Origin: a virus
Taxonomy: Duplodnaviria; Heunggongvirae; Uroviricota; Caudoviricetes
Virus record (IMG/VR): IMGVR_UViG_3300024346_000020
Reading direction: 5' to 3' (one strand)
DNA length: 64,000 bases
Made by a program: the position numbers and the translations under genes. Below the pieces are notes generated by a model. That model did not search any database. It saw only the letters and a program-made list of their open reading frames with translations, and was not told where the DNA came from. Numbering within the stretch: the first letter of the stretch is position 1; every line of letters starts with the position of its first letter. Below are positions 2,685-58,806 of this stretch, piece by piece.

Positions 2685-5600
2685 ATGAAAGTTAGAGCAC
2701 ATACCTGTTATTTAGGTCATACTGGTTTTGCAGCACACGCAAGAAATTTTTTTAGAGAATTATCAAAACATGTTGATTTAAGAGTTAGAAATTATACTTG
2801 TGATACCAATCCTAAATTAGATGAAATTGACTATTCAATTTTAGATAAAATTACATTAAGTAATTCAGATAATACATATTCTGATTACCCTATATCACAC
2901 TCATTTCCAAATTTACCTTGGACACATAAACAAGATTTTGAACAAGATGTTGATATTGTACTTATGGATATGCACCATAACTATTTCTACCAAGATTATA
3001 AAGCTAAAATTAAAATAGCTTACACTGTTTGGGAAAGTACTGAGCTAGAGCAAGTATTTTTCAATCAACTTCTAAAGTTTGACTACATTTGGGTTGTTAC
3101 ACAATGGCACAAAGATATGATTATTAAACAAGGTTATCCTGCTGATAAAGTTTTTGTTGTAAATGAAGGAGTAAACTCTATATTTTTTGACCATATTGAG
3201 AGTAATAATGATAAATTCAAATTTATGTTTTTTGGTAGATGGGATTATAGAAAAGCAGTACCAGAGATAATTGATACCTTTTTAAAATCATTCCCGAATA
3301 ATGATAATGTAGAACTTATTTTAAGTGCAGATAATCTCTATTCAGTAGATGGATTTAATTCAACTGAGGAAAGATTAAAACATTATAACTTTAATGATGA
3401 TAGAATAAAAGTTCTTCATTTTCCAAAATATGAGGAGTATGTAAACTATATTAAAACCGGTAATGTCTTAATTACGTGTGCTCGTAGTGAAGGTTGGAAT
3501 ATCCCTTTGATAGAAGCTATGGCAGCAGGAACTCCAGTAATATACTCAAATTGGGGTGCTCAATTAGAATTTGCACAAGGATTAGGAAATCCAGTTTCTA
3601 TAAGAACAGAATTACCTGCAAACATTGGTAGAGACTTAGGACTTGCTGGGGATACACCTGGGCTATATGCGGAACCTGATTATAACGACTTACAGAGAGT
3701 TTTAGTTGATTGTTATGAAAACTATACTAATAAAAAAGAAACTGCCTTAAAAGATGCCGAAATAATTAAAAATAAATTTAATTGGACAAGGATAGGTCAA
3801 GATTCATTCAACATATTAAAAAGTTTAAACTTGATTACTAAATTAGATGCAGTTGTAATAATGTCACATGCAGATGACCAAGAGAAACTAAACTTATTAG
3901 AACAATGTATAAATGTAAATAAGAATAAGGGTTATACTGTTATTTTATCATCTCATATAAAAGTACCTGATTATATATCAGACTTGGTAGATTATGTAAT
4001 TATTGATAAAGATAATCCAACTATTAATTCAAAGGAAGCAAATTTATATGGTTATCTACCATATACATATTGGAATCACACTGACTGTGATATTACATTA
4101 CCATTTCAATATAATCATAGTTATGCTGCACTTAAACTAATAAAAAATGGGTTATCGCTTGCAATTGTTAATAGTTTTAAAAAGGTTCATTTTGTAAATT
4201 ATGATTATATAATAAATACCAATTTACTAGAAGAAAATTCACATTTATTAAATAAATATGAATTTGTTGGATATGGATTTAATATAGGAGAATCTATATC
4301 AGTCAATAGTGGGTTATTTTCAGTGCAGAGTAATTCTTTTTATAAAATCATAGAACCATTAAATTCAAAGAAAAATTATTTTAAATATAAAAATAAGGGA
4401 TTTTTAGAAGATGTTATTGGTTCTGCTTTAGAGGAATTTAATATAAAAACAAATATTAGTGATATAGAACTCTTAAAACCAAACAATATTATAAATGCAG
4501 TCGAGATAAATAATAGATGGTTGAGTAAGTCTGGTTGTATAGTAGGGAATTCAGAAGAAGACTATTATATTATATTTATGCAAAATAATAATCAAAAGTA
4601 TATAATAAACAATAAGTATGAAATTATTGCGGATATACCCCGAAAATTAGTTAAAATTGATAAAAGTGATATATTAAAAGGAATCACCATATCAGATGAA
4701 CAAGAAACATTTATCGATTTATTTAATAGTGATAACTCAAATGCAAATATTATCATTAAAAATCATTTAATAAAGAGAGATATTAATGATAATAAATTTG
4801 AAATCAAAAATAGAATTGATATAAAGTATTTAGATGGTCCATTTGTTGAGATACTTGGTGATTCTGGTTATAAATATCTTGTTAAGTTTATTGATTCTGA
4901 TAAAAATAAAGTATTATACGAATGTATAATATCATCAAATCAATGGACTAGATGCTCTATTAGATATTTTGTGAATTGGAGAATTCAAGTTGAAAATCTA
5001 ACAACTAAAGAGATAACTATAGATGAATTTAACTTAAATAATAAAATCGTTAGAGTTAGCTTAGAATCATCATCTTTAGGAGATACCTTAGCTTGGACAC
5101 CACATATAAATGAATTTGCAGAAAAAAATAACTGTATTGTGATTGTTAGTACATTCAAAAACTTTTTATTTGATACTGAGAAATATCCTAGATTAAATTT
5201 TGTAAATCCTGGAGCAACTTATGAGAATACTTATTGTAGTTATACGATAGGATGGTTTTATGATAATAATAAAATGAATGTTTATAAAAATCCAAGAGAA
5301 TTTAAAAATATTCCTTTACAAGCAACAACATCCGATATTTTAGGATTAGAAGAAAGTTCAATAAAACCATTTATTAAAGTAAATGATAAAAATTCTCCAT
5401 TAGATAATAAATATATCTGTATTGCAGTACACTCAACTGCACAAGCAAAGTATTGGAATAATCCAACTGGGTGGCAGGATATTGTAGACCATTATAAATT
5501 AAATGGTTATGAAGTAGTTATTGTAAGTTCAGAAGAAGATGGATATATGGGTAATAAAAATCCAGAAGGTGTTATTCATATGAAAGATACTTCAATGGAT

Positions 5601-5915
5601 ACCTTAATAACATATTTATACAATTGTGAGATGTTTATTGGTATAAGTTCAGGTATCAGTTGGTTATCTTGGGCTTTAAATAAAAAGACTGTGATTATAT
5701 CAGGATTTAGTAAACCTATTACTGAACCATTAGATGAAAATATTATTAGAATATTTAATGAATCTGTTTGTAATGGATGTTTTAATTCACATAGATTAGA
5801 TGCAGGTGATTGGAATTGGTGTCCTATAAATAAAGGAACTGATAAACAATTTGAATGTAGTAAATCAATTACATCTAAACAAGTAATCTCTACAATAGAG
5901 TCTAGTAAAAATTAA
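2685..5915 (+). CDS. large multidomain glycosyltransferase (GT4-like Rossmann domain plus a C-terminal GT9/heptosyltransferase-like domain)
   Basis: ITCARSEGWNIPLIEAMAAGTPVI is the canonical GT4/GT1 E-x7-E sugar-donor motif. The C-terminal CIAVHSTAQAKYWNNPTGWQDIVDHYKLNGYEVVIVS resembles the ADP-heptose transferase (GT9) fold. 1076 aa. Confidence 0.7.
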   Translation: MKVRAHTCYLGHTGFAAHARNFFRELSKHVDLRVRNYTCDTNPKLDEIDYSILDKITLSNSDNTYSDYPISHSFPNLPWTHKQDFEQDVDIVLMDMHHNYFYQDYKAKIKIAYTVWESTELEQVFFNQLLKFDYIWVVTQWHKDMIIKQGYPADKVFVVNEGVNSIFFDHIESNNDKFKFMFFGRWDYRKAVPEIIDTFLKSFPNNDNVELILSADNLYSVDGFNSTEERLKHYNFNDDRIKVLHFPKYEEYVNYIKTGNVLITCARSEGWNIPLIEAMAAGTPVIYSNWGAQLEFAQGLGNPVSIRTELPANIGRDLGLAGDTPGLYAEPDYNDLQRVLVDCYENYTNKKETALKDAEIIKNKFNWTRIGQDSFNILKSLNLITKLDAVVIMSHADDQEKLNLLEQCINVNKNKGYTVILSSHIKVPDYISDLVDYVIIDKDNPTINSKEANLYGYLPYTYWNHTDCDITLPFQYNHSYAALKLIKNGLSLAIVNSFKKVHFVNYDYIINTNLLEENSHLLNKYEFVGYGFNIGESISVNSGLFSVQSNSFYKIIEPLNSKKNYFKYKNKGFLEDVIGSALEEFNIKTNISDIELLKPNNIINAVEINNRWLSKSGCIVGNSEEDYYIIFMQNNNQKYIINNKYEIIADIPRKLVKIDKSDILKGITISDEQETFIDLFNSDNSNANIIIKNHLIKRDINDNKFEIKNRIDIKYLDGPFVEILGDSGYKYLVKFIDSDKNKVLYECIISSNQWTRCSIRYFVNWRIQVENLTTKEITIDEFNLNNKIVRVSLESSSLGDTLAWTPHINEFAEKNNCIVIVSTFKNFLFDTEKYPRLNFVNPGATYENTYCSYTIGWFYDNNKMNVYKNPREFKNIPLQATTSDILGLEESSIKPFIKVNDKNSPLDNKYICIAVHSTAQAKYWNNPTGWQDIVDHYKLNGYEVVIVSSEEDGYMGNKNPEGVIHMKDTSMDTLITYLYNCEMFIGISSGISWLSWALNKKTVIISGFSKPITEPLDENIIRIFNESVCNGCFNSHRLDAGDWNWCPINKGTDKQFECSKSITSKQVISTIESSKN

Positions 5916-5947
5916 ATAAAGTAAAATATATTTTTAATATATACTCT

Positions 5948-6901
5948 ATGATAAAGAAGTATTTAGAGTTTATTAAAGAATCTGAATTACAAGACTTCAA
6001 TTCACTTGGAGAGTGGGTTGAGTCTTTGTATGATGATGAATATGTTAAAAACATAGTAAATCGATTTTTAGGAGATATACCTTCTAATATAAGACTGTCT
6101 AATGCTATAAATACATTAGAACAATCTGAACAAGATGATATTAAATCACAAATTGATACTTATCTTCAAAATGGTATCGAAGAAAAAGAACCTGAGATTT
6201 TGGTTTCAACCGAAATCAATGAGTCTGCTGAAATTACAATTGCTGGTAAATCAATCTTTAATTCATTTTTAAAATCATTGACCGCACTAGGTCAAAAAGA
6301 GAAAGGCTCAAATGTTGAAAAATGTCCTTCTCATTTCTTATTATTTTATTATTATCCAGACCTATCATCAGAAGATGTTAAATCTGTATTTAGTAGATTC
6401 AAATCATTGACAAGATATTTAGATATGATTGATTATGGTAAAAATGAATGTGGTCTTTACTTTGGTATTAAATGTGATGGAACATTTGAATATGGTGTTA
6501 CTTATGATAAATTAAATCCAATTGGACAATTCAAACTAACTCCTTCAGTTTTAAGATGGTTAGTAACTATTGAATCTAAATCAGCAGCTTCTTTGAAAAA
6601 GGAAATAGTAAATATATCACATACTGATATGTTACTTCTTGGTAAGATTAAAACCGATATGAAAGATTTTAAACCTGGATATTTTGAGAAAGAATCTAAA
6701 CCAACAATTAGCGATAAGGTAATTTCATTTGGATACTATGGTATTGGTAAATGGGATAATGGTAAATTAGATGAAGGTGAGTTACTGAATATTAAAAATA
6801 ATTTCACTGCTTGGGTTATGACTAAAAAATGGGGTCAAAAAGTTCTGATTAGTGTTAAACCACACTCATTTTGGTTATATGTACATATTAAGTTGAAGTA
6901 A
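5948..6901 (+). CDS. hypothetical protein with a capsid-targeting-like N-terminus (MIKKYLEFIKE)
   Basis: Long ORF; N-terminal M-[IK]-K-Y-L-E-F-I-K-E contains I-x-E. TAA stop overlaps the next gene's start (ATGA). Confidence 0.6.
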   Translation: MIKKYLEFIKESELQDFNSLGEWVESLYDDEYVKNIVNRFLGDIPSNIRLSNAINTLEQSEQDDIKSQIDTYLQNGIEEKEPEILVSTEINESAEITIAGKSIFNSFLKSLTALGQKEKGSNVEKCPSHFLLFYYYPDLSSEDVKSVFSRFKSLTRYLDMIDYGKNECGLYFGIKCDGTFEYGVTYDKLNPIGQFKLTPSVLRWLVTIESKSAASLKKEIVNISHTDMLLLGKIKTDMKDFKPGYFEKESKPTISDKVISFGYYGIGKWDNGKLDEGELLNIKNNFTAWVMTKKWGQKVLISVKPHSFWLYVHIKLK

Positions 6902-7335
6902 TGAAGTATTTGAAGTTTTATAAATTATTTGAAAATTTTTATATTGAAGACTTTATAAATGAACTAAAGGAAATAAGTGAGATGTATTTGGCTTACTTAC
7001 TAGATGATAATAATATTGAGGTTGGTGTATATGAATATCAATTCATAGATGAGTGTATAGTAATAGAGGTCTACTCAGTAGATGATAAAAATATAAAATG
7101 GGATAAACTTAAAAATCATTTAATTCCATTTGTAGAAATTATAAATAAGAAATATAAGTTAGTTCCAGAGAATACGGATTTAGATGATGAACAAGTTTTA
7201 GATGATGAACAAGTTGTATTACTATGGGATAGTAATAGTGAAACTACTCCATTTACAATAGAGGAATTAAAATCACATCCTATAAAAGAAGCTTCAGGAA
7301 TGAGCATTTATGTAAAATATAATAATGAGATATGA
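6901..7335 (+). CDS. hypothetical acidic protein with a capsid-targeting-like N-terminus (MKYLKFYKLFE); internal DLDDEQVLDDEQV duplication
   Basis: Start is translationally coupled with the previous stop. Tandem peptide repeat. Acidic. Confidence 0.6.
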   Translation: MKYLKFYKLFENFYIEDFINELKEISEMYLAYLLDDNNIEVGVYEYQFIDECIVIEVYSVDDKNIKWDKLKNHLIPFVEIINKKYKLVPENTDLDDEQVLDDEQVVLLWDSNSETTPFTIEELKSHPIKEASGMSIYVKYNNEI

Positions 7336-7619
7336 GATATTTAAGAAAATATAACGAGAACACTTTTGATAAACATCATGCAGTTGTAAAGATTAAAGAA
7401 CAGTTCACAGAAGAAACTGTTTCTGAAATGCTTGCAGATGAGGTAAAAGAATGGGTTGAAGAAGGCGATTATGAAGCAGTCAGTAATGGCGAAGCAGAAG
7501 ATATTATCATTCATCAACTAATTTCTTGGTATAAAAAAGAGTTTAATAAACAATTAGATGAAGAACAAGAGTCTGAACTAGAAACTGAACTTAAACAAGA
7601 ATACAAAACTCTAAACTAA
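7332..7619 (+). CDS. hypothetical acidic protein with a capsid-targeting-like N-terminus (MRYLRKYNE)
   Basis: ATGA overlap with the upstream gene; highly acidic (EEGDYEAV...EEQESELETE). Confidence 0.55.
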   Translation: MRYLRKYNENTFDKHHAVVKIKEQFTEETVSEMLADEVKEWVEEGDYEAVSNGEAEDIIIHQLISWYKKEFNKQLDEEQESELETELKQEYKTLN

Positions 7620-7654: not shown

Positions 7655-7978
7655 ATGAAACATTTAAAAAATACCAGAAAAGATACCCAGAATAAATGGG
7701 ATAATCTTATTGGAAATATAGGTCTAACTGGATCTAAAGCCACCTGGATGTCTCAGTATGTTGGTTTACAATCACAATCAATAACACAATCAAATTTTCC
7801 TAGTATGCTTCCAATTGCAATGAAAGTTGCTGCACAAACTGTAGGATTAGATTTAGTATCAGTTCAACCAATGTCTGCACCACTAGGTACTTTACATTAT
7901 ATGGACTATCAATATGGTGACATGAAACATATAACAAGAAAAAGAAAAATTAATAATATATTTAAAGTCAATGAGTAG
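7655..7978 (+). CDS. hypothetical protein
   Basis: ORF only. Confidence 0.45.
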   Translation: MKHLKNTRKDTQNKWDNLIGNIGLTGSKATWMSQYVGLQSQSITQSNFPSMLPIAMKVAAQTVGLDLVSVQPMSAPLGTLHYMDYQYGDMKHITRKRKINNIFKVNE

Positions 7979-26719: not shown

Positions 26720-27460
26720 TTAAAATCTATTAAATTTTGTAATTAAACTTTCTGCAACTACAGGTTCTTGTGTCTCAGCTGGTTTTTCAACACCTGAATG
26801 ATGTTTTGAAATAATATCTACAATATCAGCTCTTTTGTTACATTCATCAATAAATGTTTTATAAGGTGTAACTAACTCTTGATTCCAAACAGTACCTGAT
26901 AAGGCATCCGCAAGATTTTTTTCAGTTTCTGGATTTACTTCACCATCAAGTACTTCAACACTACCCATACTTACTTTATCATTTTTTACCCAAGTTCCTT
27001 TTTCTATATCAAAAAGTAATCCATTTGAAAATGTTAGAGTTGGATTTTCTGCAGCTAAATCAAATTTATAATCAAATTTAATTACTGCACTTGACCAAAT
27101 ACGACCATGCTCTTCCAATTCTGTTTTTCCTTCTGCCGCAATTTCTTTATCTAACATTGGAATTATATTTACAACTTTCTTATCATTAAATGTTTCATCA
27201 GTTAGTAAAAGTTTACCTCCTTCAACTTTTAACTTTCCTTCATTTGGTTTATAATTTACCAAATATGAAATAGGATGACTTTTTTCTTCATCAGTAAGAT
27301 CGGAACCACCCATAAATCTAAATGTATAAGCAAATCCTTGTTCTGCAATATTTTGTTTTTTTAACATTTCTCCAATAAGTTTTCCTTTATCAGATTTACC
27401 TTTAACAGCAGCTTCTAATCTATCTAGGAAACTCTCGTTGAATTTTTTAATATATCTCAT
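26720..27460 (-). CDS. hypothetical protein with a capsid-targeting-like N-terminus (MRYIKKFNESF)
   Basis: ORF; N-terminus matches the recurring M[KR]Y[LI]K motif. Confidence 0.55.
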   Translation of the reverse strand: MRYIKKFNESFLDRLEAAVKGKSDKGKLIGEMLKKQNIAEQGFAYTFRFMGGSDLTDEEKSHPISYLVNYKPNEGKLKVEGGKLLLTDETFNDKKVVNIIPMLDKEIAAEGKTELEEHGRIWSSAVIKFDYKFDLAAENPTLTFSNGLLFDIEKGTWVKNDKVSMGSVEVLDGEVNPETEKNLADALSGTVWNQELVTPYKTFIDECNKRADIVDIISKHHSGVEKPAETQEPVVAESLITKFNRF

Positions 27461-27534
27461 ATTACAATAATAATTTTTTATTATATATTAAAAAAAATAT
27501 AAAAAAAATTCACTTTTTAAGGTGGATTTTAAAA

Positions 27535-28644
27535 TTATTTCTTAAATTCTTTTTTATCAGAAGAAATGTAGAACTTATCGAAGTCATAATACTTAGAATA
27601 AACTTCTTTAATCTTTTTCAAAGTAACCTCTTCTAATATATCATACACCGACCAACCCGTGGGATTTATCCATTGATTCACAGAAGCATATCTATTGATT
27701 TCATCTTTTTGTTTTCTAACACCATAGTATTCTTTAACAAGGTTAAATCTTTCTTTAGTTAAAAACTTATCTGGATTTGTAATAACTTTCTTAACTGCTT
27801 CTACAACCTCATCAAAGTTTTTATTTGAAGTCAATGTTGAAATAGAATTTAATCCTTTATCATTTACTCTTGACTGATAACAATGAACGAAATAAACTAA
27901 TCCTTTTTTCTCTCGTATCTCTTGATATAATGGAGATTTCAATCCTAATGATAACATAGCATTGATAAAATGAACATATGCAAAGTCTTCTTCAATTACT
28001 GGTGAAAGAATTACAACAGAAGTTTTATCTTTAAAATCATTGTTTAATTCTAAATCTGTATCGTGATTACCAAAACTTAAATTAGTTACGATTTTTCTTT
28101 CTTGAAACTCAACCGCTTTATTTTTATAATCTTTGTTTTTAGATACATTGATAATTTTAGTTGGTTTTGCATATTGTAATTCAAAGAAGTTAAGACAATC
28201 CATAAATTTTAGATTCTCTAAATCTTTTTTCAATCCAATTGGATCATAATCATTAAATAACTTTCTAGAAAGATTTAACATATGAGATTGAGATTGATCA
28301 TTGAAACAATCCATATACTCTTCAAGAACAATTTTTCTTTCGTTTTCAAATTCCTCTTTAGTAACTTTAAAAGAAGTTAGTAAGTCGACAAATTGATTTT
28401 TATATTTATTTACCTTTTCATCTAATCCAGTTAAATAGAATACAATTTCATTTGATGAAGTATAAGCATTCCAGTCGATGCCGTCTCTATCAAAGTCTTC
28501 TTGTAAGTGATCGAATGATTTGCATAAAAGGTGTTCCATAATATGACTTATCCCATACCAACCCGGTTTTTCTAAGTTTGTTGAACCCTCATACACAACA
28601 TAGAATCCACTTAAATCAGTTGGACTTTTTAAATTTACTATCAT
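27535..28644 (-). CDS. M16-family (insulinase/pitrilysin-like) zinc metallopeptidase
   Basis: GISHIMEHLLCKSF contains the inverted zincin motif HxxEH, at the N-terminal position typical of M16 peptidases. Confidence 0.6.
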   Translation of the reverse strand: MIVNLKSPTDLSGFYVVYEGSTNLEKPGWYGISHIMEHLLCKSFDHLQEDFDRDGIDWNAYTSSNEIVFYLTGLDEKVNKYKNQFVDLLTSFKVTKEEFENERKIVLEEYMDCFNDQSQSHMLNLSRKLFNDYDPIGLKKDLENLKFMDCLNFFELQYAKPTKIINVSKNKDYKNKAVEFQERKIVTNLSFGNHDTDLELNNDFKDKTSVVILSPVIEEDFAYVHFINAMLSLGLKSPLYQEIREKKGLVYFVHCYQSRVNDKGLNSISTLTSNKNFDEVVEAVKKVITNPDKFLTKERFNLVKEYYGVRKQKDEINRYASVNQWINPTGWSVYDILEEVTLKKIKEVYSKYYDFDKFYISSDKKEFKK

Positions 28645-31054: not shown

Positions 31055-32953
31055 ATGGTAGATCAGATTTTGGGTTATTGGCCCGTACTTTTAACGCTCG
31101 TATGTATCGTTATGTACAAATTTATTTTTCGTGTATTTTTCGGACTAGTCATTGTTCCTGAGGACAAGGTTGGTTTGGTTACGAAAAAATTCGTTCTTTT
31201 TGGAGACAATAAAGAACTTAGTGGTGATAGAATCATCGCAGTAAACGGTGAAGCAGGTTTACAAGCTAAAATGCTTTCTCCTGGTTTACATTGGTGGATG
31301 TGGCCTTGGCAGTATTCTGTTGATATGCAAGCATTTATCGTTATTCCAGAGGGACATATTGGACTAGTTTCTTCTAAAGATGGTAGAGTTCCTAAAACTG
31401 GACGTATCTTAGCACGTAGAGTTGAGTGTGATAACTTCCAAGATGCAGTAGCTTTCCTTAATAACGAAGGACAAAAAGGACGTCAGTCTGCATATATTAC
31501 GAATGGTACTTATAAAATCAACACTCACTTATTTGAAGTGTCTGCCGTTAAACAAGTAAGTGTACAAGAGAATATGGTTGGTATTGTAACTACAATGGAT
31601 GGTGAACCACTTAACACTGGTCAAATTGCCGGAGAACCTGTAACAGGACACAATAACTTCCAAGATTTTGATACATTCTTATCTGAGGGTGGTAACAGAG
31701 GTTTGCAACAACAAGTAATCCTTGCGGGTTCTTATAACTTAAATCCTTGGGCTGTTCAAGTTGAAGAAGTACAAATGACTGAAATTCCTATTGGTAATGT
31801 TGGTGTTGTTATTTCTTATGTTGGTGCTGATGGTGTTGACTTAACTGGTGATAACTTCAAACACGGTAACTTAGTGTCAAAAGGACAAAAAGGTGTTTGG
31901 GCTGAGCCACTTGGACCCGGTAAGTATGCAATCAATAGATATACTAATCGTATTGAAGTTGTACCTACTACTAACTTAGTTCTTAACTGGGCTAATGCTA
32001 GAACAGAGTCTCACAACTTAGACAAAGGATTGAGTACGATTACAGTACGTTCTAAAGATGGTTTCCCATTTAACTTAGACGTTTCTCAAATCATTCACAT
32101 TCCAATGACAGAAGCACCAAAAGTAATCGCTCGTTTCGGTTCTATGTTAAATCTTGTATCACAAGTATTAGAGCCTACAATTGGTAACTACTTCCGTAAC
32201 TCTGCACAAGATTCAGACGTTATTGCGTTCTTATCTACTCGTCAAATTAGACAAGATGCTGCCAAAGCTTCTATCTCTGCTGTACTTGATGAATATAACG
32301 TTCACGCTGTAGATACATTGATTGGAGATATTACTCCACCAGAGTCTTTGATGAAAACTCTTACTGATCGTAAGATTGCAGAAGAGCAACAAGTGACTTA
32401 CGAGACACAGAAAAAAGCTCAAGTTCAAAGACAGACTCTTGAAAAAGAAACTGCAATTGCAGATATGCAAGGTGAATTAGTAAAAGCAGATCAAGGTGTT
32501 CAGATTTCTGAAAGATTGGCAGACTCAGCAGTTAAAGATGCAACTGGTAAAGCTCGTTCAGTAAAAATTGCAGCAGAAGCTAACGCAGAATCTACAACAT
32601 TGAATGCTAAAGCAGAAGCTACAAGAAAAACTCTTATTGGAGATGCTGAAGCGAATGCCATCTTAGCAGTGGGTAAGTCAACCGCTGAATCTTACAGATT
32701 AGCTGTTGACGCAATGGGTCAAGATAACTTCACGACTTATAAAGTAACAGAAGAAATCGGTAAAGGTAATGTGAAAATTATGCCAGACTTACTTATCAAT
32801 GGTGGTGGTCAAGGTGGAAATGGTTCATTAGATGGATTACTTGGAGTTCAAATCATGAATATGATGGGTAAAGGTTTCAAAAATCTTGAGACAACAGAAA
32901 TTCCTGCTGAAGTGGTAGTAACAACTACCGAAGATAAAAAAGGAAAAAAATAA
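31055..32953 (+). CDS. flotillin / YqiK-like SPFH-domain membrane protein
   Basis: N-terminal TM helix (WPVLLTLVCIVMYKFIFRVFFGLVIV), a central SPFH-like region, and a C-terminal Ala/Glu-rich flotillin repeat region (AEANAESTTLNAKAEATRKTLIGDAEANAILAVGKSTAES). Confidence 0.65.
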   Translation: MVDQILGYWPVLLTLVCIVMYKFIFRVFFGLVIVPEDKVGLVTKKFVLFGDNKELSGDRIIAVNGEAGLQAKMLSPGLHWWMWPWQYSVDMQAFIVIPEGHIGLVSSKDGRVPKTGRILARRVECDNFQDAVAFLNNEGQKGRQSAYITNGTYKINTHLFEVSAVKQVSVQENMVGIVTTMDGEPLNTGQIAGEPVTGHNNFQDFDTFLSEGGNRGLQQQVILAGSYNLNPWAVQVEEVQMTEIPIGNVGVVISYVGADGVDLTGDNFKHGNLVSKGQKGVWAEPLGPGKYAINRYTNRIEVVPTTNLVLNWANARTESHNLDKGLSTITVRSKDGFPFNLDVSQIIHIPMTEAPKVIARFGSMLNLVSQVLEPTIGNYFRNSAQDSDVIAFLSTRQIRQDAAKASISAVLDEYNVHAVDTLIGDITPPESLMKTLTDRKIAEEQQVTYETQKKAQVQRQTLEKETAIADMQGELVKADQGVQISERLADSAVKDATGKARSVKIAAEANAESTTLNAKAEATRKTLIGDAEANAILAVGKSTAESYRLAVDAMGQDNFTTYKVTEEIGKGNVKIMPDLLINGGGQGGNGSLDGLLGVQIMNMMGKGFKNLETTEIPAEVVVTTTEDKKGKK

Positions 32954-33048: not shown

Positions 33049-33074
33049 ATTTATAATTTTTAATATATACAATT

Positions 33075-33821
33075 ATGTACAACAAAATATATGACTTCTG
33101 TAAAGTAAGAAATGAAGGAACTATCTATGATAATAATTCACAGACTCCACCTCCAAGAGTTCAATTTCTAATGGAACTTTTAGAGTCAGAAGGTATTAAA
33201 TACGAATTAGATAAATTCTATACTGCTGAAGTAACAGGATATAATATTATCTTACAAGGTACATCAAACAGAATGGTTGTCGCACATCATGATGTAAGTA
33301 ATCCTAAAATAGATAATGCAAATGATAATAGTGCGTCAGTAATCAATTCTATAATGATTAAGAAGCTTTTGCCAACAATGAATGTAATTCTATTAGATGG
33401 TGAAGAAGTTGGGGGAGTGGGCTCTAATAGAGCTTCAGAACTAATCAATAATGGTAAATTTGGTGATATAGAATGGGTACTTAATTTAGAGTTAAGTGGT
33501 AAAGGTGGTAAACACTTTTTTATTGGAGATTATCCAGGTCCTTTAACAAATCATATTAAAACTCTTTTTGATTGTCCAATAGTTAAAACACCTTTTAATG
33601 ACTCAGTTACATTTAGAAGAAATGGAATTGATTCAGTAGTAATAAATCCTTTACCTCCTGTTTTGGAAGGTAAAACAAATGTCAAATGGAATGAAGATAC
33701 ATATTTAGATTACTCTATGTTATTTAATTGTCATTCATCAAAAGACACGATTGCAACAATTGATCCAACAGATATGAAAGAATTTGTTGAGGATGTTGTT
33801 TTAAAAATATTAACATATTAA
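33075..33821 (+). CDS. putative M28/M20-like zinc peptidase-fold protein
   Basis: MVVAHHDVSNPKIDNANDNSASV...LLDGEEVGGVGSN resembles the H-D...D...EE metal-ligand pattern of M28 aminopeptidases; weak. Confidence 0.3.
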   Translation: MYNKIYDFCKVRNEGTIYDNNSQTPPPRVQFLMELLESEGIKYELDKFYTAEVTGYNIILQGTSNRMVVAHHDVSNPKIDNANDNSASVINSIMIKKLLPTMNVILLDGEEVGGVGSNRASELINNGKFGDIEWVLNLELSGKGGKHFFIGDYPGPLTNHIKTLFDCPIVKTPFNDSVTFRRNGIDSVVINPLPPVLEGKTNVKWNEDTYLDYSMLFNCHSSKDTIATIDPTDMKEFVEDVVLKILTY

Positions 33822-35021
33822 ATGAGAAGTTTAACCAAGTATGATGAGTTCATAGTGGAGAAACTTATATTAGAACAACTTTTGTTAGAGTCTAACATAA
33901 TTTATTCTAGTAAGTTTAAAAAAGCACTTACAAAATTACCGGAGAATGAAATGGCTCAAAAACTATTAGAGATAGAAAATCAAGATTTAGATGTAGTTTC
34001 TAATTTCTTTGATATAAAAATTGATAATGATAATATATTGACATTTACTCCAGATAGAGTTGCACAACAAATACTCGAAGATACAAGAGAGTATGTAAAT
34101 TATGTTGGTCGTAGAGGTGGTTGGTTGACTAATAATGTTAGAACTAACGGAGCTATCTTTGCAAGACTTGGATTTACTCCTGCGACAGAAGAAGTATTTC
34201 ATCCAAATAATAATCTTATTGGTGAAGTAATTAGTGAGGTAACTTCTGAAAAAACTCATAAAACTTGGTGTTATGTTAAGTTTCCAACTGGTGAAGGTGT
34301 TTATAATAGAGAAAAGTTAAGAACTATTGTTGATGATAAACAAAAGATAGTATTTACTAAAAGTAGACAAGAAATAAGAATTGGTAGAGCAGTTAGACTT
34401 CTATTGACTGCTTACAACTTCAATCCAACCGCTGCGGCTATAGAAACATTTGTAAATGAGTTTAGAGCAGTCTTATCAATTATGAATGATGTATTCTCTC
34501 GATTTGAGATAGTAGAAGGTGATGATTTGGGATTCTGGTATCATAGAAGAAACTATGAGTTTCCACATAATGGTACATTAGGTGGTTCTTGTCAGGCAGT
34601 TGGAAATCTTGATTGGTTAGAAATCTATACTAGTAATCCACAAACAGTTAAACTACTTATGTTAAAGTCAGAAAACTTTGATAATAAAATTATTGGTAGG
34701 GCACTTCTTTGGACGTTAGATGATGGTAGACAAGTAATGGATAGTATTTATACAAGTAAAGATTCAGATAGAAATGTATTTATTGAGTACGGTAATGCAA
34801 AAGGATACTTACAAATGAATTATAGTGATACCTTTGTTGCACATATAAATCCTGGTGAATTTGATCAATATCCATCAGTTGATAATATGAATAATTGGGA
34901 TCCAACAACGGGTAAAATTAGTAATAAGTCTTTCCCAGGATCAAGAGGTATAATATGGAGTGAGAATGATGGAGATGAAGAGTGGGATGAAGAGTGGGAT
35001 GATGATCCAGATAATGACTGA
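33822..35021 (+). CDS. hypothetical protein; N-terminus MRSLTKYDEFIVE (capsid-targeting-like), C-terminus EWDEEWDEEWDDDPDND
   Basis: ORF; ATG directly after the upstream TAA; acidic W/D/E-rich tail. Confidence 0.5.
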   Translation: MRSLTKYDEFIVEKLILEQLLLESNIIYSSKFKKALTKLPENEMAQKLLEIENQDLDVVSNFFDIKIDNDNILTFTPDRVAQQILEDTREYVNYVGRRGGWLTNNVRTNGAIFARLGFTPATEEVFHPNNNLIGEVISEVTSEKTHKTWCYVKFPTGEGVYNREKLRTIVDDKQKIVFTKSRQEIRIGRAVRLLLTAYNFNPTAAAIETFVNEFRAVLSIMNDVFSRFEIVEGDDLGFWYHRRNYEFPHNGTLGGSCQAVGNLDWLEIYTSNPQTVKLLMLKSENFDNKIIGRALLWTLDDGRQVMDSIYTSKDSDRNVFIEYGNAKGYLQMNYSDTFVAHINPGEFDQYPSVDNMNNWDPTTGKISNKSFPGSRGIIWSENDGDEEWDEEWDDDPDND

Positions 35022-35040
35022 TAAAAATAATATATACTAA

Positions 35041-35217
35041 GTGAAATATTTAAAACTTTTTGAAGCATTTGTAGCAGACATGCCACAAGTAGAATTATCG
35101 GATAAAACAATTGATGATGTTCTTAATCCTGATTTCTTTGAAGAAGATATTGAGGATGAAGGTTCTACAATAGATTCAAATGGTGTTATACATATAAAAA
35201 ATTGGAACACATACTAA
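35041..35217 (+). CDS. small hypothetical protein (58 aa, GTG start) with a capsid-targeting-like N-terminus (V/M)KYLKLFEAF
   Basis: GTG at 35041 to TAA at 35215-35217 is an open frame; the motif is shared with five or six other ORFs; not in the ORF track (non-ATG start, under 60 aa). Confidence 0.3.
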   Translation: MKYLKLFEAFVADMPQVELSDKTIDDVLNPDFFEEDIEDEGSTIDSNGVIHIKNWNTY

Positions 35218-35253: not shown

Positions 35254-35664
35254 TTATACTTCTACAACCCATGTGTCAGTTTTAAAATCATCCTTTGTCA
35301 TTACTGTTATTACAGTTAGTGTAAATTCATTTGCACCAGGTGTTAGTACACAAACTATATTTAGTTTTGTTCTCTTATCTCTAATAACAAATCTATTTGG
35401 ATTACCATACTCATCCATAATATCAAATTGATCTTGCATTAAAGCAATTGTTATTTCCTCAATTGCAGATTCTACCAATCCTCTAATATCATCATCATCA
35501 ATCTTACCTGTATCTTTATTAAAACCATGTCTATATTGTTGAATAGCTGCATGTTCTACCTTTTCAAGATCAATTCTAATCTCAACTCTTTTTTGAATCG
35601 GACCTAAATCTGTTACTCTTGGTCTAAAACCACCTCTAAAGTTTTCAAAATTTTTAATTACCAT
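35254..35664 (-). CDS. hypothetical protein
   Basis: ORF only. Confidence 0.4.
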   Translation of the reverse strand: MVIKNFENFRGGFRPRVTDLGPIQKRVEIRIDLEKVEHAAIQQYRHGFNKDTGKIDDDDIRGLVESAIEEITIALMQDQFDIMDEYGNPNRFVIRDKRTKLNIVCVLTPGANEFTLTVITVMTKDDFKTDTWVVEV

Positions 35665-35700
35665 CTTAATAAATTATTTTTATTAAACTATATATTAAAT

Positions 35701-49954: not shown

Positions 49955-51208
49955 ATGAACGTAGAACAGTTGGCAAAGAATGCGATTGAGAAAATAAAAT
50001 CAAATTGGGGTTTACCTAAAAGAGGGTTTATCGCAGGTGGTTCTATTGCAAATATTATATGGGAAGAAGTTTCTGGAACAAAAGCAATCATCAATGACAT
50101 CGATGTTTTTTTGTTTGATGGTCTTTTAGAAAATTATAACGAAGATAAAAAAGAATACTATTTTTCATTTAAAGAAGATGAACAAAATGTTTGGTATGAT
50201 GATTACGCGGGTCTAAGATTTATTGATAGAGCTAAAAACTATTACTCTATTTGTGAATCAACTACTGATGGTATATTCAACTACGTTAGTTACAAGTCAA
50301 ATACTCATAATCCAGAGATTATTATCAAATCATTTGATATAAACTGTACTGCGGTTGGTTATTCGATCGAAGAAGATAAGTTTTATTGGACACCAGAGTT
50401 TGAGAAGTTCTTAAAAACTGGTGAGTTGAAAATATCTAATTTGAAAACACCTTGTCATACTGCAATTCGGATTGTAAAGAAATCAGAAGAACTTGATGTT
50501 AAGTTAGATTTATTTGAATTAGAGATTGTTCAAGGTGTCTTATCACGTCAACTACAAGATGTTTATAAAGTTAGATTTCAAGATAGGTATTTCAACCTAT
50601 TTAATAATCATAAAATACTTGAAAACTATTTTACAATAGAAAAAGATTTAGATTGTATGACACACGTCAAAACAACATATGACAAAGATGTAAATCTATG
50701 GACTTTAAAAACTAAGAAAGAATCTGTTTGGTCAGGTGATAATAATCTTCTTGCAATTCACAAAGGTGAAGATTTCTTATTTTATTTAAGAAACATTTAT
50801 ACTAAACCAGAATTGATAGATGTATGGAATAAGTTAAGACCATTATTTATAAATGAAGATTATGTAGATGGTGGTGTTGATGTAGAAGATATGAAATTAT
50901 TATCAAGTACAATTCAATTTCTACCAAAAACAATTCTTAATCTAAGAGGTTATAAACTAACTGAACAAGTTTCAATAGTTAAATCATTATTAGAAAGATA
51001 TAAAGAAGATCCCGCAATTGCTTTTTCGGTATTGGAAAAACATACGATTGAACCAAATCAAGAGATTGATGATTCAACTGCACTTCTTTATGAACTTTCA
51101 GTAAGAAAAGAAATTGTTGATGAAAGACATAATTCTATGGTCGAAAGTATATTATCTAAGGTAGAATATAATGATAGTGATGCATGTTATGCAACTTGTG
51201 TGGATTAA
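49955..51208 (+). CDS. hypothetical protein with an N-terminal nucleotidyltransferase-like motif
   Basis: GFIAGGSIANIIWEEVSGTKAIINDIDVFLF (GGS ... DIDV), compatible with a Pol-beta NTase or CCA-adding-enzyme-type head; weak. Confidence 0.3.
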   Translation: MNVEQLAKNAIEKIKSNWGLPKRGFIAGGSIANIIWEEVSGTKAIINDIDVFLFDGLLENYNEDKKEYYFSFKEDEQNVWYDDYAGLRFIDRAKNYYSICESTTDGIFNYVSYKSNTHNPEIIIKSFDINCTAVGYSIEEDKFYWTPEFEKFLKTGELKISNLKTPCHTAIRIVKKSEELDVKLDLFELEIVQGVLSRQLQDVYKVRFQDRYFNLFNNHKILENYFTIEKDLDCMTHVKTTYDKDVNLWTLKTKKESVWSGDNNLLAIHKGEDFLFYLRNIYTKPELIDVWNKLRPLFINEDYVDGGVDVEDMKLLSSTIQFLPKTILNLRGYKLTEQVSIVKSLLERYKEDPAIAFSVLEKHTIEPNQEIDDSTALLYELSVRKEIVDERHNSMVESILSKVEYNDSDACYATCVD

Positions 51209-51253: not shown

Positions 51254-51574
51254 ATGGGATTTATAACAGAATTAAATGAAACAAACTATAACGGATTTGT
51301 AGAAAGTGGAGTGGCTTTAGTAGACATATATGCGATTTGGTGCGGTCCGTGCAAACAAATTGCACCTATTGTAGATCAATTTTCAATTGATTTTCAAGGA
51401 AGAGTAGCAGTAGGTAAATTAGACGCATCTCCAAATGGAGATAAAGTAGCTGAGTTAGGTATCAGAAACATTCCTACAATCTTGATTTATAAAGATGGAG
51501 AAATTGTAGATAAAAGTGTTGGTATGACAACTAAAGAAAAATTGTCTGAACTTGTTGAGCAATACTTAAACTAA
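51254..51574 (+). CDS. trxA: thioredoxin
   Basis: WCGPCK active site, 106 aa, canonical spacing (VDIYAIWCGPCKQIAP...IPTILIYKDGE). Confidence 0.85.
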   Translation: MGFITELNETNYNGFVESGVALVDIYAIWCGPCKQIAPIVDQFSIDFQGRVAVGKLDASPNGDKVAELGIRNIPTILIYKDGEIVDKSVGMTTKEKLSELVEQYLN

Positions 51575-52149
51575 TGGAAGAAATAGATTATTTATATGAT
51601 CTAATTAGTAAAACTGAGACAACCTTAATTGGTTATCGATTTTCAGATGAAAGAATTAAAGATGAAATTATTTCTAATCTTGGAAAAACCAAGACAATAG
51701 ATTTAAGTTCATCTTTTTCTATGAAGTCGATCCTTAGAGATATAAAAATTGATCAAGTTTTAAATGAAGAAGAAAAAATTGATTATCTACTATTAGATAT
51801 AAATGATATAAGAAATTCTTATATTGAACAAAGAAACTTTACTAATGAAGATATAAGTCGAGCAGGTATAATAAAAAATATTATTTACGATGTAAGAGAT
51901 TGTTTAAGAGATAGTAGAAATGGTAAAGATATTAGTGATATTAAATTGATACTTACTTGTCCACTACAATCTAATGGTTTAAATAGAGATGGTAATATGA
52001 TTGATGCTTTTATGGGTGGTTCGACACCTTTATATTATGCAGATTTAGCAATGATTATAACTCAACAAAGTAATGATAAGATAATACAAGTCATTAAGAA
52101 CAGAGAATCAGATTCTCACAAAATTATAAAATATGATAGCATTAAATAG
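51574..52149 (+). CDS. hypothetical protein
   Basis: ORF; ATG overlaps the upstream TAA. Confidence 0.4.
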   Translation: MEEIDYLYDLISKTETTLIGYRFSDERIKDEIISNLGKTKTIDLSSSFSMKSILRDIKIDQVLNEEEKIDYLLLDINDIRNSYIEQRNFTNEDISRAGIIKNIIYDVRDCLRDSRNGKDISDIKLILTCPLQSNGLNRDGNMIDAFMGGSTPLYYADLAMIITQQSNDKIIQVIKNRESDSHKIIKYDSIK

Positions 52150-52564
52150 AAGAGCTCGTTACGAATATACTTTTATAGAGGAATTTGACTGCGGGATAAT
52201 ATTGGTTGGTAGTGAGGTAAAATCCGTTAGAATGGGTAATGTTACTTTAATAGATGCATTTATTTTTATAAAAGATAATGAGGTTTGGATAAAAAACTTA
52301 AAGATTGCTGCTTATAAATCAGCACATACTTTAGACATACACGAAGAAAATCGTGATAAGAAACTTCTTTTAAATAAAAAAGAGATTACTCGAATCAAAC
52401 GAAAATTGGAAGACAAAGGTATAACCGCGATTCCACTTGGTATGTTTGTTAAGAATAATAGAATTAAAATCAAAATAGCAGTTGCTAAGGGGAAGAAAAC
52501 TTGGGATAAAAGAGCTTCAATTAAGGAGAGAGACCTTACCAGAGAGATGCAAAGAAATATATAA
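52133..52564 (+). CDS. smpB: SsrA-binding protein SmpB
   Basis: NRRARYEYTFIEEFDCGIILVGSEVKS...LLLNKKEI...IKIKIAVAKGKKTWDKRASIKERD matches the SmpB family along its full length (143 aa). Confidence 0.85.
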   Translation: MIALNRRARYEYTFIEEFDCGIILVGSEVKSVRMGNVTLIDAFIFIKDNEVWIKNLKIAAYKSAHTLDIHEENRDKKLLLNKKEITRIKRKLEDKGITAIPLGMFVKNNRIKIKIAVAKGKKTWDKRASIKERDLTREMQRNI

Positions 52565-52567
52565 TGT

Positions 52568-52921
52568 ATGAAATTGACCTTATTAGAATATCTCGATAAG
52601 CTACATCTTTCAACTACTGAGGAGCAAGCCATTGATACACTCAAAAAACTTATGAAGAACTTTAGTTCTAATAATTATAAAAGTGTTATTATGACTAATC
52701 CATATTTTAAATCATTAGCACTTGATTTAAAAGAAGAGGTGAGTAAAGAAATGAATTTAATGAGAAATTTAATAACTGTTGAAATTGATAATCTTAATTC
52801 ACAATTAAATAAAACTAAAAATACAGCAGACTTTTTAAAATTAAAGGATCTAAGAAGAGAGTGTGTTCATCTTTTAACAGATTTAGAAGCCAGACAACAT
52901 GACTTATACCTACTATCTTAA
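52568..52921 (+). CDS. hypothetical coiled-coil protein
   Basis: ORF only. Confidence 0.4.
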   Translation: MKLTLLEYLDKLHLSTTEEQAIDTLKKLMKNFSSNNYKSVIMTNPYFKSLALDLKEEVSKEMNLMRNLITVEIDNLNSQLNKTKNTADFLKLKDLRRECVHLLTDLEARQHDLYLLS

Positions 52922-54586
52922 AAGGTCTTTAAATACTTTTTCAAGTTTATCTAATCTTTTAACATCACTATTATACTCTTCTTCACTATATCTTAATCTA
53001 CTCATAATTAGTTTTAATGATGAAGTATCAGCATCTAAGTTTATAAGAATATTTTTAGTATTTCTAGAAAGTATAAAAATATCATCTTGTACTAATTCAT
53101 ACAATGATGCTAGTCTAACTTGTATTGATTTAAGATCTTCAATAGTTTCTATATTTCTATTTTTAATTGAATTTGATAAAAGTTGACCTATATTAGTTAT
53201 TCTGTCAATTACATCAGACATTCTTTCTGCATTTTGATTATCAGTATCTTTAATAATTTTAATACTATAGGAGTAAGCAGTAGTTTGTTTTAAACGTCTT
53301 TTCTTAATAGTTTTAAACAATTCATATGTTTTCTCAAAGTTATATGAGTTATCACTTTCTGACATCAATCTATACAAAAATGTAATAAAGTCTGATAATC
53401 TATCAATATAAGAACTACTATTATAAAGAGCAATTATAAAATAATCTCCAATAATTGATGATAAAACAACTGAGTTGAGATTTTTAAATTCTTGTTTATC
53501 TTTTTCAATTCCTAATTTTGTAAATAAAGTAGTTAAATACCTTTCAACATTTTCTTTTCTAATATCATCTGGTTTCCTTAAAGCGAGAGCATCCTTTTTA
53601 ACAGACTTTCTTCTTTTTATAATATCAGATGTAGTATCATCAACATTTTTAATGATTATATCATCAAGAAAAAGAACGATTGCGAAGTTTGCTTCTTTAT
53701 TTACTTTATTAAAAATTGAAGTTTTTCTCTGATTCCATTCTTCCAAAGTAGTTCCATCTAATGGTAAATTGAAATCCCAAACAGATTCTTCTGTTTTATT
53801 CATTTTATCCAAATCTTCATCCTTAAATCTTAATGGATTTTCATCAAGTATTACTTTATGTAACATAAGATGATCATCATTCTCACTTTCTGGACTTCCT
53901 AATGACCAAGCATATTGATAAGCTGCATTACCTGCATATAGATTATATCTGTCTGGTAACACGATATTATTTCTAGTTGAACCAGGATCTGATCCTTCAT
54001 GTTCATTTTGATAAAAGTAATATTGAAGTTCATCATCATTTCTTCTATTATCAGCATATATTTCACCAAAAGTTAAATAAGAAGGATCTCCATTGAAATC
54101 ATCACCACAAACCATTACTACTTTATCACCTGTTACTAAATCTCCTAATCTCGCTGGAGTAATAACACCACCTATTCTATATTCTCTAGCTAGGTAAGCC
54201 AAATGTGATTGATCTAAACCTTCGCCATTACTCATCATAGAACCATTATAAGAATTATACTTGTTATAATCCATAGTTTTATTTCCAGATCCAGTACTAC
54301 ATAAATAACCTTTTTCTAATGAAAACCAATATTTAATACAGTAAGTACCAGATGGATTCATTGCTTCTTCACCTTTACCAACAACTAAAGCTTTATTTAC
54401 CGGTAAGTATTGTATTTCTTTATCGCTTAATGTACTTAGTGGGAAATCAAATTTATCAGCAAGTTTTTTTAATACTTTTAAAAACTCTCTTGTTGGATTA
54501 TCACTCTTTATCTTTTTATTTAGAAATGAAAGTATTGCACTAACTCTATCAGATTCAAACCCTTCGTATAATTTTAAGTATTTCAT
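52913..54586 (-). CDS. hypothetical 557-aa protein with a capsid-targeting-like N-terminus (MKYLKLYEGFE)
   Basis: Long ORF, convergent with the upstream plus-strand block; N-terminal motif shared with other ORFs. Confidence 0.55.
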   Translation of the reverse strand: MKYLKLYEGFESDRVSAILSFLNKKIKSDNPTREFLKVLKKLADKFDFPLSTLSDKEIQYLPVNKALVVGKGEEAMNPSGTYCIKYWFSLEKGYLCSTGSGNKTMDYNKYNSYNGSMMSNGEGLDQSHLAYLAREYRIGGVITPARLGDLVTGDKVVMVCGDDFNGDPSYLTFGEIYADNRRNDDELQYYFYQNEHEGSDPGSTRNNIVLPDRYNLYAGNAAYQYAWSLGSPESENDDHLMLHKVILDENPLRFKDEDLDKMNKTEESVWDFNLPLDGTTLEEWNQRKTSIFNKVNKEANFAIVLFLDDIIIKNVDDTTSDIIKRRKSVKKDALALRKPDDIRKENVERYLTTLFTKLGIEKDKQEFKNLNSVVLSSIIGDYFIIALYNSSSYIDRLSDFITFLYRLMSESDNSYNFEKTYELFKTIKKRRLKQTTAYSYSIKIIKDTDNQNAERMSDVIDRITNIGQLLSNSIKNRNIETIEDLKSIQVRLASLYELVQDDIFILSRNTKNILINLDADTSSLKLIMSRLRYSEEEYNSDVKRLDKLEKVFKDLLR

Positions 54587-58796: not shown

Positions 58797-58806
58797 CAAA
58801 TATAAT

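Follow-up and report, generated by a model that had tools for sequence, protein, structure and literature searches.

The 64,000-nucleotide stretch of DNA analyzed here (the window) comes from IMG/VR record IMGVR_UViG_3300024346_000020, a virus of the class Caudoviricetes, and the subject of this report is a short N-terminal peptide that recurs on otherwise dissimilar proteins encoded in it. The window has 29% G+C and is densely coding, with 63 open reading frames (ORFs) of ≥50 amino acids (aa) and nine tRNA genes. Seven of the ORFs begin M-[KR]-Y-[LI]-[KR]-x-[FY]-x-E or M-I-K-K-Y-x-E-F-I-x-E, a leader that we call the tag (Table 1; genes are referred to by their first coordinate). An earlier inspection of the letters alone (the sequence-only reading) had pointed out this recurrence and likened it to the capsid-targeting sequence (CTS) of phage T4, and all the ORFs and leaders that it quoted are present where it had placed them.

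A megablast search with 20 kb of the window found no DNA match in cultured or deposited phages. By tblastn, its Rad50/gp46-like protein is 80% identical to that of LR745206.1 (634,780 bp), 76% to that of LR756502.1 (642 kb), and 46% to that of LR756504.1, with 27-31% identity to the proteins of a 735-kb phage and of the Lak phages. The window is syntenic with positions 290-336 kb of LR745206. We take the LR745206-type relatives to be the huge “Mahaphage”-type genomes of Al-Shayeb et al. 2020; judged from these matches, the window is part of a huge phage genome of roughly 640 kb, presumably of the same type. Genome-wide tests were run on the entire LR745206 (942 ORFs), a complete relative.

As a check, the sequence-only reading had suggested looking for enrichment at N-termini, and the motif indeed stands far above internal and six-frame background in both the window and LR745206. 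The core [KR]Y[LI][KR] is found six times in the first five residues of the 63 window ORFs, compared to twice in ~19,850 internal positions. A position matrix derived from the N-termini of LR745206 alone, with a cutoff score of ≥8, detects five window N-termini, and only 10 of 67,963 stop-free six-frame positions reach this score, those five included. In LR745206 the corresponding numbers are 74 of 942 N-termini and 23 of 176,446 internal positions, a ~600-fold N-terminal enrichment. The matrix and the class-B pattern (see below) together mark 97 of the 942 LR745206 ORFs, or 10.3% of the coding capacity, with many weaker variants (e.g., MKHIKRFNE and MIYLKKFNES) left outside the count; the handful of genes first envisaged is therefore an underestimate by a wide margin, the scale being ~100 tagged genes per genome. 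A scan of IMG/VR with one codon version of the tag gave at least 120 loci. Among the matches listed, 129 of 133 open an ORF of ≥50 aa, and the contigs that carry them are up to 675 kb long with 17-36% G+C.

The tag has two recognizable forms. Class A reads M-K-Y-L-K-x-[FY]-x-E-[SN], with M-K-Y-L-K-K-Y-K-[IL]-F-E-S as a common variant, and class B reads M-I-K-K-[YW]-x-[QE]-F-I-x-E-S. In the window, 5948 and 33822 have the class-B core, K-K-Y-x-[QE]-F-I-x-E, and so do 23 LR745206 ORFs. Classes A and B replace one another among the orthologs of 33822, a single family with 132 homologs: its members start MRSLTKYDEFIVE, MKHLNKYGNFIVE, MKYLKLFESFILES, or MIKKYLDFIKES, and every start is followed by a near-invariant L-[IL]-L-E-S-N-V-[IV]-Y-S. 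The leader is ~8-13 residues long, extending up to ~23 in the 33822 family, where the KLILEQLLLE that follows the tag of the window member supplies extra [LI]-x-E sites. The family of 5948 comprises 779 homologs, and a MIK[RK]YL[ED]FIKE-type leader is present on all 120 among the matches listed.

Behind the tag the proteins are unrelated, as had been claimed. Past residue 15 the seven window proteins have no detectable similarity to one another (every BLASTP E value is >0.4, and phmmer is silent to E=10), and Pfam and PHROGs searches assigned none of them to a significant family. When 79 tagged LR745206 proteins were trimmed of their first 15 residues they separated into 68 BLAST components, one with five members and several with two, so that at least 60 unrelated proteins carry the tag in that genome. 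A single paralogous family was rejected as an explanation because the trimmed proteins do not cluster.

The tag is conserved at the level of amino acids and not of nucleotides. Codons inside it (AAA/AAG, TAT/TAC, and TTA/CTA/TTG) stay close to genome-wide usage while the amino acids are fixed, which argues against nucleotide-level conservation or a mobile 5′ cassette. In the family of 52913, with 99 homologs at identities down to 24%, the N-terminal 12-mer is the best-conserved segment (0.86, compared to a mean of 0.50; rank 1 of 545); the tag is thus kept far better than the body in homologs of down to 24-30% identity, and we attribute this to purifying selection on the peptide. AlphaFold models place the tag outside the fold, in a low-confidence segment, in both proteins modeled. 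For 33822 the mean predicted local distance difference test score (pLDDT) is 86, but blocks 1-10 and 11-20 average 49, with segments 1-4 and 17-22 below 50; for 52913 the mean is 81.6, with residues 1-9 below 50. The modeled bodies look different, SH3-like plus GNAT-like domains in 33822 and a mixed beta region with a long helical bundle in 52913, and fold searches with the 33822 model gave weak, domain-level matches only. In a tagged RnlA-type RNA ligase of LR745206 the tag forms an ~18-residue extension relative to T4 RnlA (BLASTP, 5e-26). High conservation with no structural role suggests a linear motif that is recognized by a partner. A secretion or lipoprotein signal was considered and rejected, since the tag is amphipathic and charged, with K, E, N, and S between the aromatic residues, and has no hydrophobic run.

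In T4, ten N-terminal residues of IPIII are enough for packaging; CTS residues 4 and 7 (Y4 and F7) serve targeting, residues 8 and 10 (I8 and E10) serve processing, and gp21 cleaves after [LI]-x-E (PMC9026906). The internal proteins of T-even phages are a diverse, defense-countering set with the CTS alone in common (PMC3012670). The tag resembles the CTS in being an N-terminal leader of ~10 residues on unrelated, fast-turning-over proteins; in its core and spacing, K-x-[YF]-x-[EQ]-F-I-x-E, which ends in Glu with I or L two residues before it (P3) and is exact in class B; and in its co-occurrence, here in the relatives, with a gp21-family protease, a gp20 portal, and a gp23 capsid protein. The proposed likeness holds for IPII and IPIII, which begin MKTYQEFIAEA in the T4 record, but not for Alt, which begins MELITELFDE; IPI begins MKTFKEFTS. 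Gene 33822, set down by the sequence-only reading as a weaker case, has Y-D-E-F-I-V-E and turns out to be among the best matches to the T4 core Y-Q-E-F-I-A-E. Class A, with aromatic residues at positions 7 and 10, matches the targeting and processing pattern of T4 only partly, and the dominant megaphage variant has an extra M-K-Y-L prefix (MKYLKxFxE). When a strict detector built from megaphage sequences was applied to ~146 kb of T4 (242 ORFs), it returned only IPII, IPIII, and gp61.1, with IPI in the loose set. T4 gene 61.1 (AF158101, 18966-19130, minus strand; locus L222) encodes a hypothetical protein of 54 aa whose first residues, MKTFKEFIKE, form an almost perfect CTS-like leader.

Tagged genes vary between close relatives, as the internal-protein genes of T-even phages do. 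Genes 6901 and 26720 have no ortholog in LR745206, and 52913 has diverged to 28.6% identity from its syntenic ortholog, compared to ~45-77% for most conserved neighbors. The ortholog of 7332 (G_291084; 41% identity) starts MKYLRKYNES, and that of 35041 (G_315068) starts MKYLKLYENFD.

The relatives also supply a candidate partner. LR745206 encodes a T4-type head module with a portal protein (5e-23 against gp20) and a gp23-type capsid protein (Pfam Gp23, 2e-26), as well as a large terminase, a sheath, a tail tube, and gp4. Directly upstream of the capsid gene, at 198546-200669 (L004/L005), lies a gene for a 707-aa fusion protein whose first ~190 residues are a gp21-type protease. This domain is 28% identical to T4 gp21 by BLASTP (hhalign probability, 94.4%; E = 9e-8) and 34-38% identical to the annotated head maturation proteases of HTVC008M, S-H38, PA5oct, and pT24. 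The residues aligned to T4 His85 (G-E-F-D-H-P) and Ser140 (V-S-S-R), which we take to be the catalytic pair, are conserved. The Pfam Peptidase_S77 match is weak and below threshold (E = 0.005), and phmmer with the protease domain as query did not find T4 gp21 among PDB sequences. The prohead protease that the sequence-only reading had expected elsewhere in the genome is thus found in the relatives, although its gene does not lie in the window. IMG/VR holds 426 relatives of the protease, and five contigs are common to the protease and tag matches listed.

The remainder of the fusion protein appears to be a scaffold, made of 11-14 tandem 14-residue units, N-I-A-Y-S-E-Y-I-A-E-N-L-D-K, followed by an acidic tract. 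Each unit contains an [IL]-A-E site and the CTS core Y-x-E-[FY]-I-x-E, so that Y-x-x-[FY]-I-x-E is common to the Y-S-E-Y-I-A-E repeats, T4 MKTYQEFIAE, and the tags. There are 62 internal matches to the CTS-type pattern in LR745206, 11 of them in the protease-scaffold protein where 0.19 would be expected (P = 2e-16); from these counts, the pattern is concentrated in two places only, the N-termini and the prohead scaffold. The T4 prohead core, built of gp22 (MLKEQLIAEA) and gp67/gp68 and degraded by gp21 at [LI]-x-E, offers a parallel, in that both scaffolds are rich in [LI]-x-E and both resemble the CTS (QLIAE↓A in gp22 and EYIAE↓N in the megaphage repeats, the arrow marking the putative cleavage point). 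The megaphage protease and scaffold are one polypeptide with a regular array of 14-residue repeats, whereas gp22 is not so built, and we know of no description of such a regular repeat scaffold.

Directly after the three adjacent tagged genes 5948, 6901, and 7332, the window encodes a small relative of the capsid protein (7655-7978), which matches Pfam Gp23 (1.6e-7) and the PHROG for major head protein (1.4e-7). It amounts to a stand-alone copy of the propeptide and N-arm, aligning to residues 1-142 of the LR745206 gp23-type protein (E = 9e-18), and has a 157-aa ortholog in LR745206. Its role might be that of a minor head protein, a decoy, or a regulator of assembly. Its position beside 5948, 6901, and 7332 ties that cluster to head assembly by association.

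In tagged LR745206 proteins the first Glu is mostly residue 8, 9, or 11 and in nearly all lies within residues 8-12. Of the 97, 66 have I, F, or L at P3, and the Glu is followed by S in 44 and by N in 12. Most of the window tags have [LI]-x-E near their end, as had been noted: it falls within residues 6-13 in five of the seven, the exceptions being 7332 with Y-N-E and 26720 with F-N-E. In the LR745206 capsid protein, the sequence shows a candidate site at residues 42-44, I-N-E↓N, and the scaffold repeats likewise have E↓N at the putative site. In T4, by comparison, the residue after the Glu is Ala, as in the IPII and IPIII leaders (IAE-A), the gp22 N-terminus (LIAE-A), and gp23 at its known cleavage point (LTE-A).

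Among the tagged LR745206 proteins with recognizable domains are the RnlA-type RNA ligase, a 2H-phosphoesterase (with a weak Acb1-like match) fused to a DEDD exonuclease, a GH108 muramidase, and a weakly matching DHH phosphoesterase. Two further tagged proteins have an HExxH motif (HELNH and HELTH), read from their sequences, and match no Pfam family. These domains would fit “first-minute” roles in repair or counter-defense, a fit that does not in itself prove packaging.

Tags and scaffold repeats are both present in four huge-phage lineages, namely, LR745206, LR756504, LR756500, and the 735-kb LR756501. Across the repeat-bearing lineages, in which Y-S-E-Y-I-A-E-type units recur, the fusion is 633-806 aa long. 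The samples for tags were small, with only loose tag matches in LR756504 and one strict match in LR756500; LR756501 has class-B-like N-termini. Lak-C1 has a protease-scaffold fusion without repeats and no tags in a partial sample of 123 ORFs; the same holds for pT24, a cultured Bacteroidota jumbo phage, in 106 ORFs of a 100-kb sample. In HTVC008M the scaffold has a gene of its own, and the 46 ORFs of a 40-kb sample include no tags.

A promoter-like 9-mer, TAATATATA, accompanies the tagged genes. The window has 15 copies, on the plus strand at 5935, 8159, 26098, 33061, 35028, 49190, 57939, 58232, and 59360 and on the minus strand at 17337, 22373, 27482, 35689, 45509, and 54591. All seven tagged genes lie in units headed by a copy; 33822 does so behind an M28-peptidase gene whose stop abuts its start, and the start of 6901 overlaps the stop of 5948. 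LR745206 has 191 copies, 140 of them within 60 nucleotides (nt) upstream of an ORF, with a bimodal spacing of 4-6 or 17-30 nt. In LR745206, the genes for the portal, the protease-scaffold, and the tail tube are preceded by the full 9-mer, the terminase gene by the 8-mer AATATATA, and those for the capsid protein, the sheath, and gp4 by a TATATA core only. A 7-mer of the element (the AATATATA core) lies ≤40 nt upstream of 47% of matrix-tagged LR745206 genes, compared to 16% of clearly untagged ones. The element is missing from 49 tagged LR745206 genes, 44 of which are directly behind a gene on the same strand. No Shine-Dalgarno sequences are visible, and since TAATATATA can lie 4-6 nt before the ATG, the mRNAs may be leaderless or nearly so. 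The idea of a strictly late promoter is weakened, and late timing is not established, because uvsX- and gp46-like genes are also preceded by TAATATATA; in addition, no gp55 homolog was found.

Table 1. Positions of tagged genes, associated elements, and related features in the window and in other genomes (↓, candidate cleavage point; pI, isoelectric point)
Feature	Source	Position	Strand	Description
Tagged gene	Window	5948-6901	+	317 aa; class B, MIKKYLEFIKE↓S (K-x-Y-x-E-F-I-x-E; compare T4 MKTYQEFIAE)
Tagged gene	Window	6901-7335	+	144 aa, pI 4.3; class A, MKYLKFYKLFE↓N; matrix score 17.3
Tagged gene	Window	7332-7619	+	95 aa, pI 4.55; class A, MRYLRKYNE↓N; matrix score 19.5
Tagged gene	Window	26720-27460	-	246 aa; class A, MRYIKKFNE↓S (N-terminus MRYIKKFNESF); matrix score 19.7
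Tagged gene	Window	33822-35021	+	399 aa; class B, MRSLTKYDEFIVE, then KLILEQLLLE↓S
Tagged gene	Window	35041-35217	+	58 aa, pI 4.05; GTG start; class A, (M)KYLKLFEAFVAD (KYLKLFEAF); matrix score 21.7
Tagged gene	Window	52913-54586	-	557 aa; class A, MKYLKLYEGFE↓S; 99 homologs
TAATATATA	Window	5935-5943	+	4 nt upstream of 5948 ATG; heads unit 5948/6901/7332, probably 7655
TAATATATA	Window	27482-27490	-	21 nt upstream of tagged gene 26720-27460
TAATATATA	Window	33061-33069	+	5 nt upstream of M28-peptidase gene 33075-33821
TAATATATA	Window	35028-35036	+	4 nt upstream of 35041 GTG start
TAATATATA	Window	54591-54599	-	4 nt upstream of tagged gene 52913-54586
Capsid-protein mini-paralog	Window	7655-7978	+	107 aa; starts MKHLKN, not a full tag
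Possible extra weak tag	Window	35254-35664	-	136 aa; MVIKNFENF (K-x-F-x-x-F); loose pattern only, outside the seven
Tagged proteins with recognizable features, candidate cargo (in order: RnlA-type RNA ligase, 2H-phosphoesterase-exonuclease, GH108 muramidase, two HExxH proteins)	LR745206	470485-471747, 448257-449573, 96496-97470, 252909-253988, 466947-468290		
Repeat-bearing fusion	L016	23760-26054	-	
Repeat-bearing fusion	L019	30841-32739	+	
Repeat-bearing fusion	L224	from 3001	+	

We consider it probable, with moderate confidence, that the tag is a T4-like capsid-targeting leader that would be removed by the prohead protease and that has been expanded to ~100 genes. The computational tests that were run all favor this reading. 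In the mechanism that we propose, the leader would form a short amphipathic helix with an aromatic and hydrophobic face, [YF]-x-x-F-[ILV], and would dock its cargo on the scaffolding core of the assembling prohead, the scaffold being the fusion whose Y-S-E-Y-I-A-E-N-L-D-K units resemble the tag. Once the shell has closed, the gp21-family serine protease would cut both scaffold and leaders after Glu (I/L/F-x-E, mostly then S or N); predicted substrates are MKYLKTFESF..., MIKKYLEFIKES..., and NIAYSEYIAENLDK. The mature proteins would remain in the head and enter the host with the DNA. Scaffold binding, cleavage, virion residence, and ejection are all steps that we infer. That the leader may imitate one unit of a repeat scaffold is a new mechanistic suggestion drawn from the shared core, and one that is testable in T4 too. 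The most far-reaching version, in which a leader mimicking a scaffold unit would load roughly a tenth of the megaphage proteome (~100 proteins) into the capsid for delivery with the DNA, we put forward tentatively, as possible but somewhat short of probable.

If that version is true, the injected set would comprise the RNA ligase, the 2H-phosphoesterase-exonuclease, the two HExxH proteins, the peptidoglycan hydrolase, and dozens of orphan acidic proteins, a preassembled infection and anti-defense toolkit on a scale unknown for any phage. Huge phages resist culture, and the function of hundreds of their genes is unassigned; a tag that marks virion-packaged proteins would classify ~10% of these phages' genes and allow the injected proteome of uncultivated huge phages to be read straight from sequence; the tagged proteins would be the first to act in the infected cell and so likely counter-defense and takeover factors. 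The capsid-targeting principle of T4 would then extend across a very deep branch of the T4-like head lineage, and the tag with its cognate scaffold might give a second, orthogonal means of packing phage capsids with foreign proteins. In the literature library searched, no paper was found that links such a tag, or “MKYLK,” with huge phages or megaphages.

Several observations weigh against capsid targeting. The number of tagged species, ~100 per genome, is far above the three to five of T4 and the ~8-19 cleaved head proteins of phiKZ-like phages, and at this number the claim that all are packaged is stronger than the T4 precedent covers. Strict [LI]-x-E fits only some class-A tags, F-N-E and T-F-E being common, and the Glu is here mostly followed by S or N instead of A. 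Tagged proteins are acidic, with a median pI of 4.9 compared to 5.6 for the rest, and the sequence-only reading was mistaken in calling the small window proteins acidic like the internal proteins of T4, since IPI, IPII, and IPIII are basic (pI 8.9-9.5). Some tagged proteins, such as the RNA ligase and the exonuclease, are ordinary cytoplasmic enzymes that need not be packaged. The protease-scaffold gene is absent from the window and shown only in relatives (30-80% identical in the Rad50/gp46-like protein), and it was in samples of 40-100 kb that Lak, pT24, and HTVC008M showed no tags. The same TAATATATA that heads the tagged units also precedes the uvsX- and gp46-like genes, although it does not precede the genes for polymerase, helicase, or primase. 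For this uncultivated lineage, the literature searches found neither virion proteomics nor cleavage data.

Other phages offer partial parallels to capsid targeting by a leader. Phage P1 Dar and the P22 ejection proteins are similar in concept, being capsid-carried anti-defense or entry proteins delivered with the DNA; to our knowledge they lack both gp21-type processing and a shared N-terminal decapeptide that is cleaved off. We likewise know of no repeat scaffold in phiKZ-type phages. Head and ejection proteins of phiKZ, 201phi2-1, and SPN3US are cut by gp175/gp245 at [SAG]-x-E; the propeptides of these giant phages are thought to target proteins into the prohead, and the gp21-related protease cuts after Glu (PMC5694885). 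Some megaphage tags (E-[AG]-F-E↓S) would fit [AG]-x-E as well. The phiKZ-type propeptides differ in that they are mostly 80-130 residues long with no common short consensus, and ~8-19 proteins are processed; a long propeptide of this type was rejected for the tag, which has its first Glu at ~8-12 and a strong common consensus.

The best-surviving alternative to capsid targeting is that the tag is a sorting or recognition signal for other phage machinery (perhaps a chaperone, a compartment, an assembly site associated with a membrane or with SPFH, or the M16 or M28 peptidases as processing or degrading enzymes) and resembles the CTS through convergence of short amphipathic helices. A tagged set of 97 genes in 942 is very many for capsid cargo, and acidic proteins that include cytoplasmic-type enzymes would suit such a signal. 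In the window an M16 peptidase adjoins 26720, the M28 peptidase is directly upstream of 33822, and an SPFH gene is nearby; these peptidases are linked to the tags by adjacency alone, with no sequence link found. The alternative leaves unexplained why one protein, the prohead protease-scaffold, should repeat the tag core 11-14 times when no other does, why the megaphage-built detector is specific for T4 internal proteins, and why a paralog of the capsid-protein N-terminus clusters with three tagged genes. We regard it as unlikely.

More doubtful still is a remnant of common ancestry or cassette shuffling, in which a fast-diverging multigene family or a mobile module of promoter and first codons would have left a peptide with no targeting role. 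T4-type phages do shuffle promoter-bearing cassettes (PeSL elements), some tagged genes are true paralogs in tandem arrays, and about half of the tagged genes have the same upstream element right beside the ATG. Yet 68 of the 79 trimmed proteins are singletons or pairs by BLAST, the two modeled bodies look different, the tag of the 52913 family is far better kept than the rest of the protein, and 49 tagged genes have no upstream element. Synonymous sites in the tag also vary freely, so that it is not a recently copied DNA module. We consider this explanation improbable.

A constraint on mRNA or translation initiation instead of peptide function, as in leaderless or Shine-Dalgarno-less late transcripts of a Bacteroidota-type host, would account for the TAATATATA that ends 4-6 nt before the ATG in most directly promoted tagged genes, the lack of visible Shine-Dalgarno sequences, and the A/U-rich tag codons, but it is hardly credible given that codon choice is close to genome-wide usage with the amino acids fixed, that K/R and L/I swaps are conservative at the protein level, that tags are also found on 17 genes with a 15- to 35-nt spacing and 49 with no element (44 of them operon internal), and that the tagged fraction does not differ significantly between spacings of 3-7 and 15-35 nt (p = 0.08). 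An artifact of leaderless mRNAs was rejected because leadered and operon-internal genes are tagged as well.

The M16 (insulinase-type) peptidase is encoded at 27535-28644 on the minus strand, has an intact HxxEH motif (HIMEH), and is 76% identical to its counterpart in the relative. The M28 peptidase (33075-33821, plus strand), apparently in one unit with 33822, is 70% identical in the relative. A role of these peptidases in processing or clearing leader peptides is possible. The 632-aa SPFH/Band-7 protein is encoded at 31055-32953 on the plus strand and has no match in LR745206. The weakly tagged gene 35254 has its own copy of TAATATATA (35689-35697), 24 nt upstream.

Two large genes on the plus strand near the start of the window also have no match in LR745206: 209-2356 encodes a 715-aa collagen-repeat protein, and 2685-5915 encodes a 1076-aa protein with several glycosyltransferase domains (GT1, GT4, and GT9). 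The untagged gene 49955-51208 (plus strand) is annotated on an identical ENA contig as PF26128 “Gad2,” which we take to be an anti-Gabija family, and our own Pfam scan gave a weak nucleotidyltransferase match only. Pfam annotations of an identical ENA contig place a thioredoxin, SmpB, a YqeY-domain protein, and a tyrosyl-tRNA synthetase within 51254-56503 and 58724-59782. The nine tRNA genes that belong to this translation-related cluster are those for Trp, Phe (two), His (two), Lys, Arg, and Ser (two).

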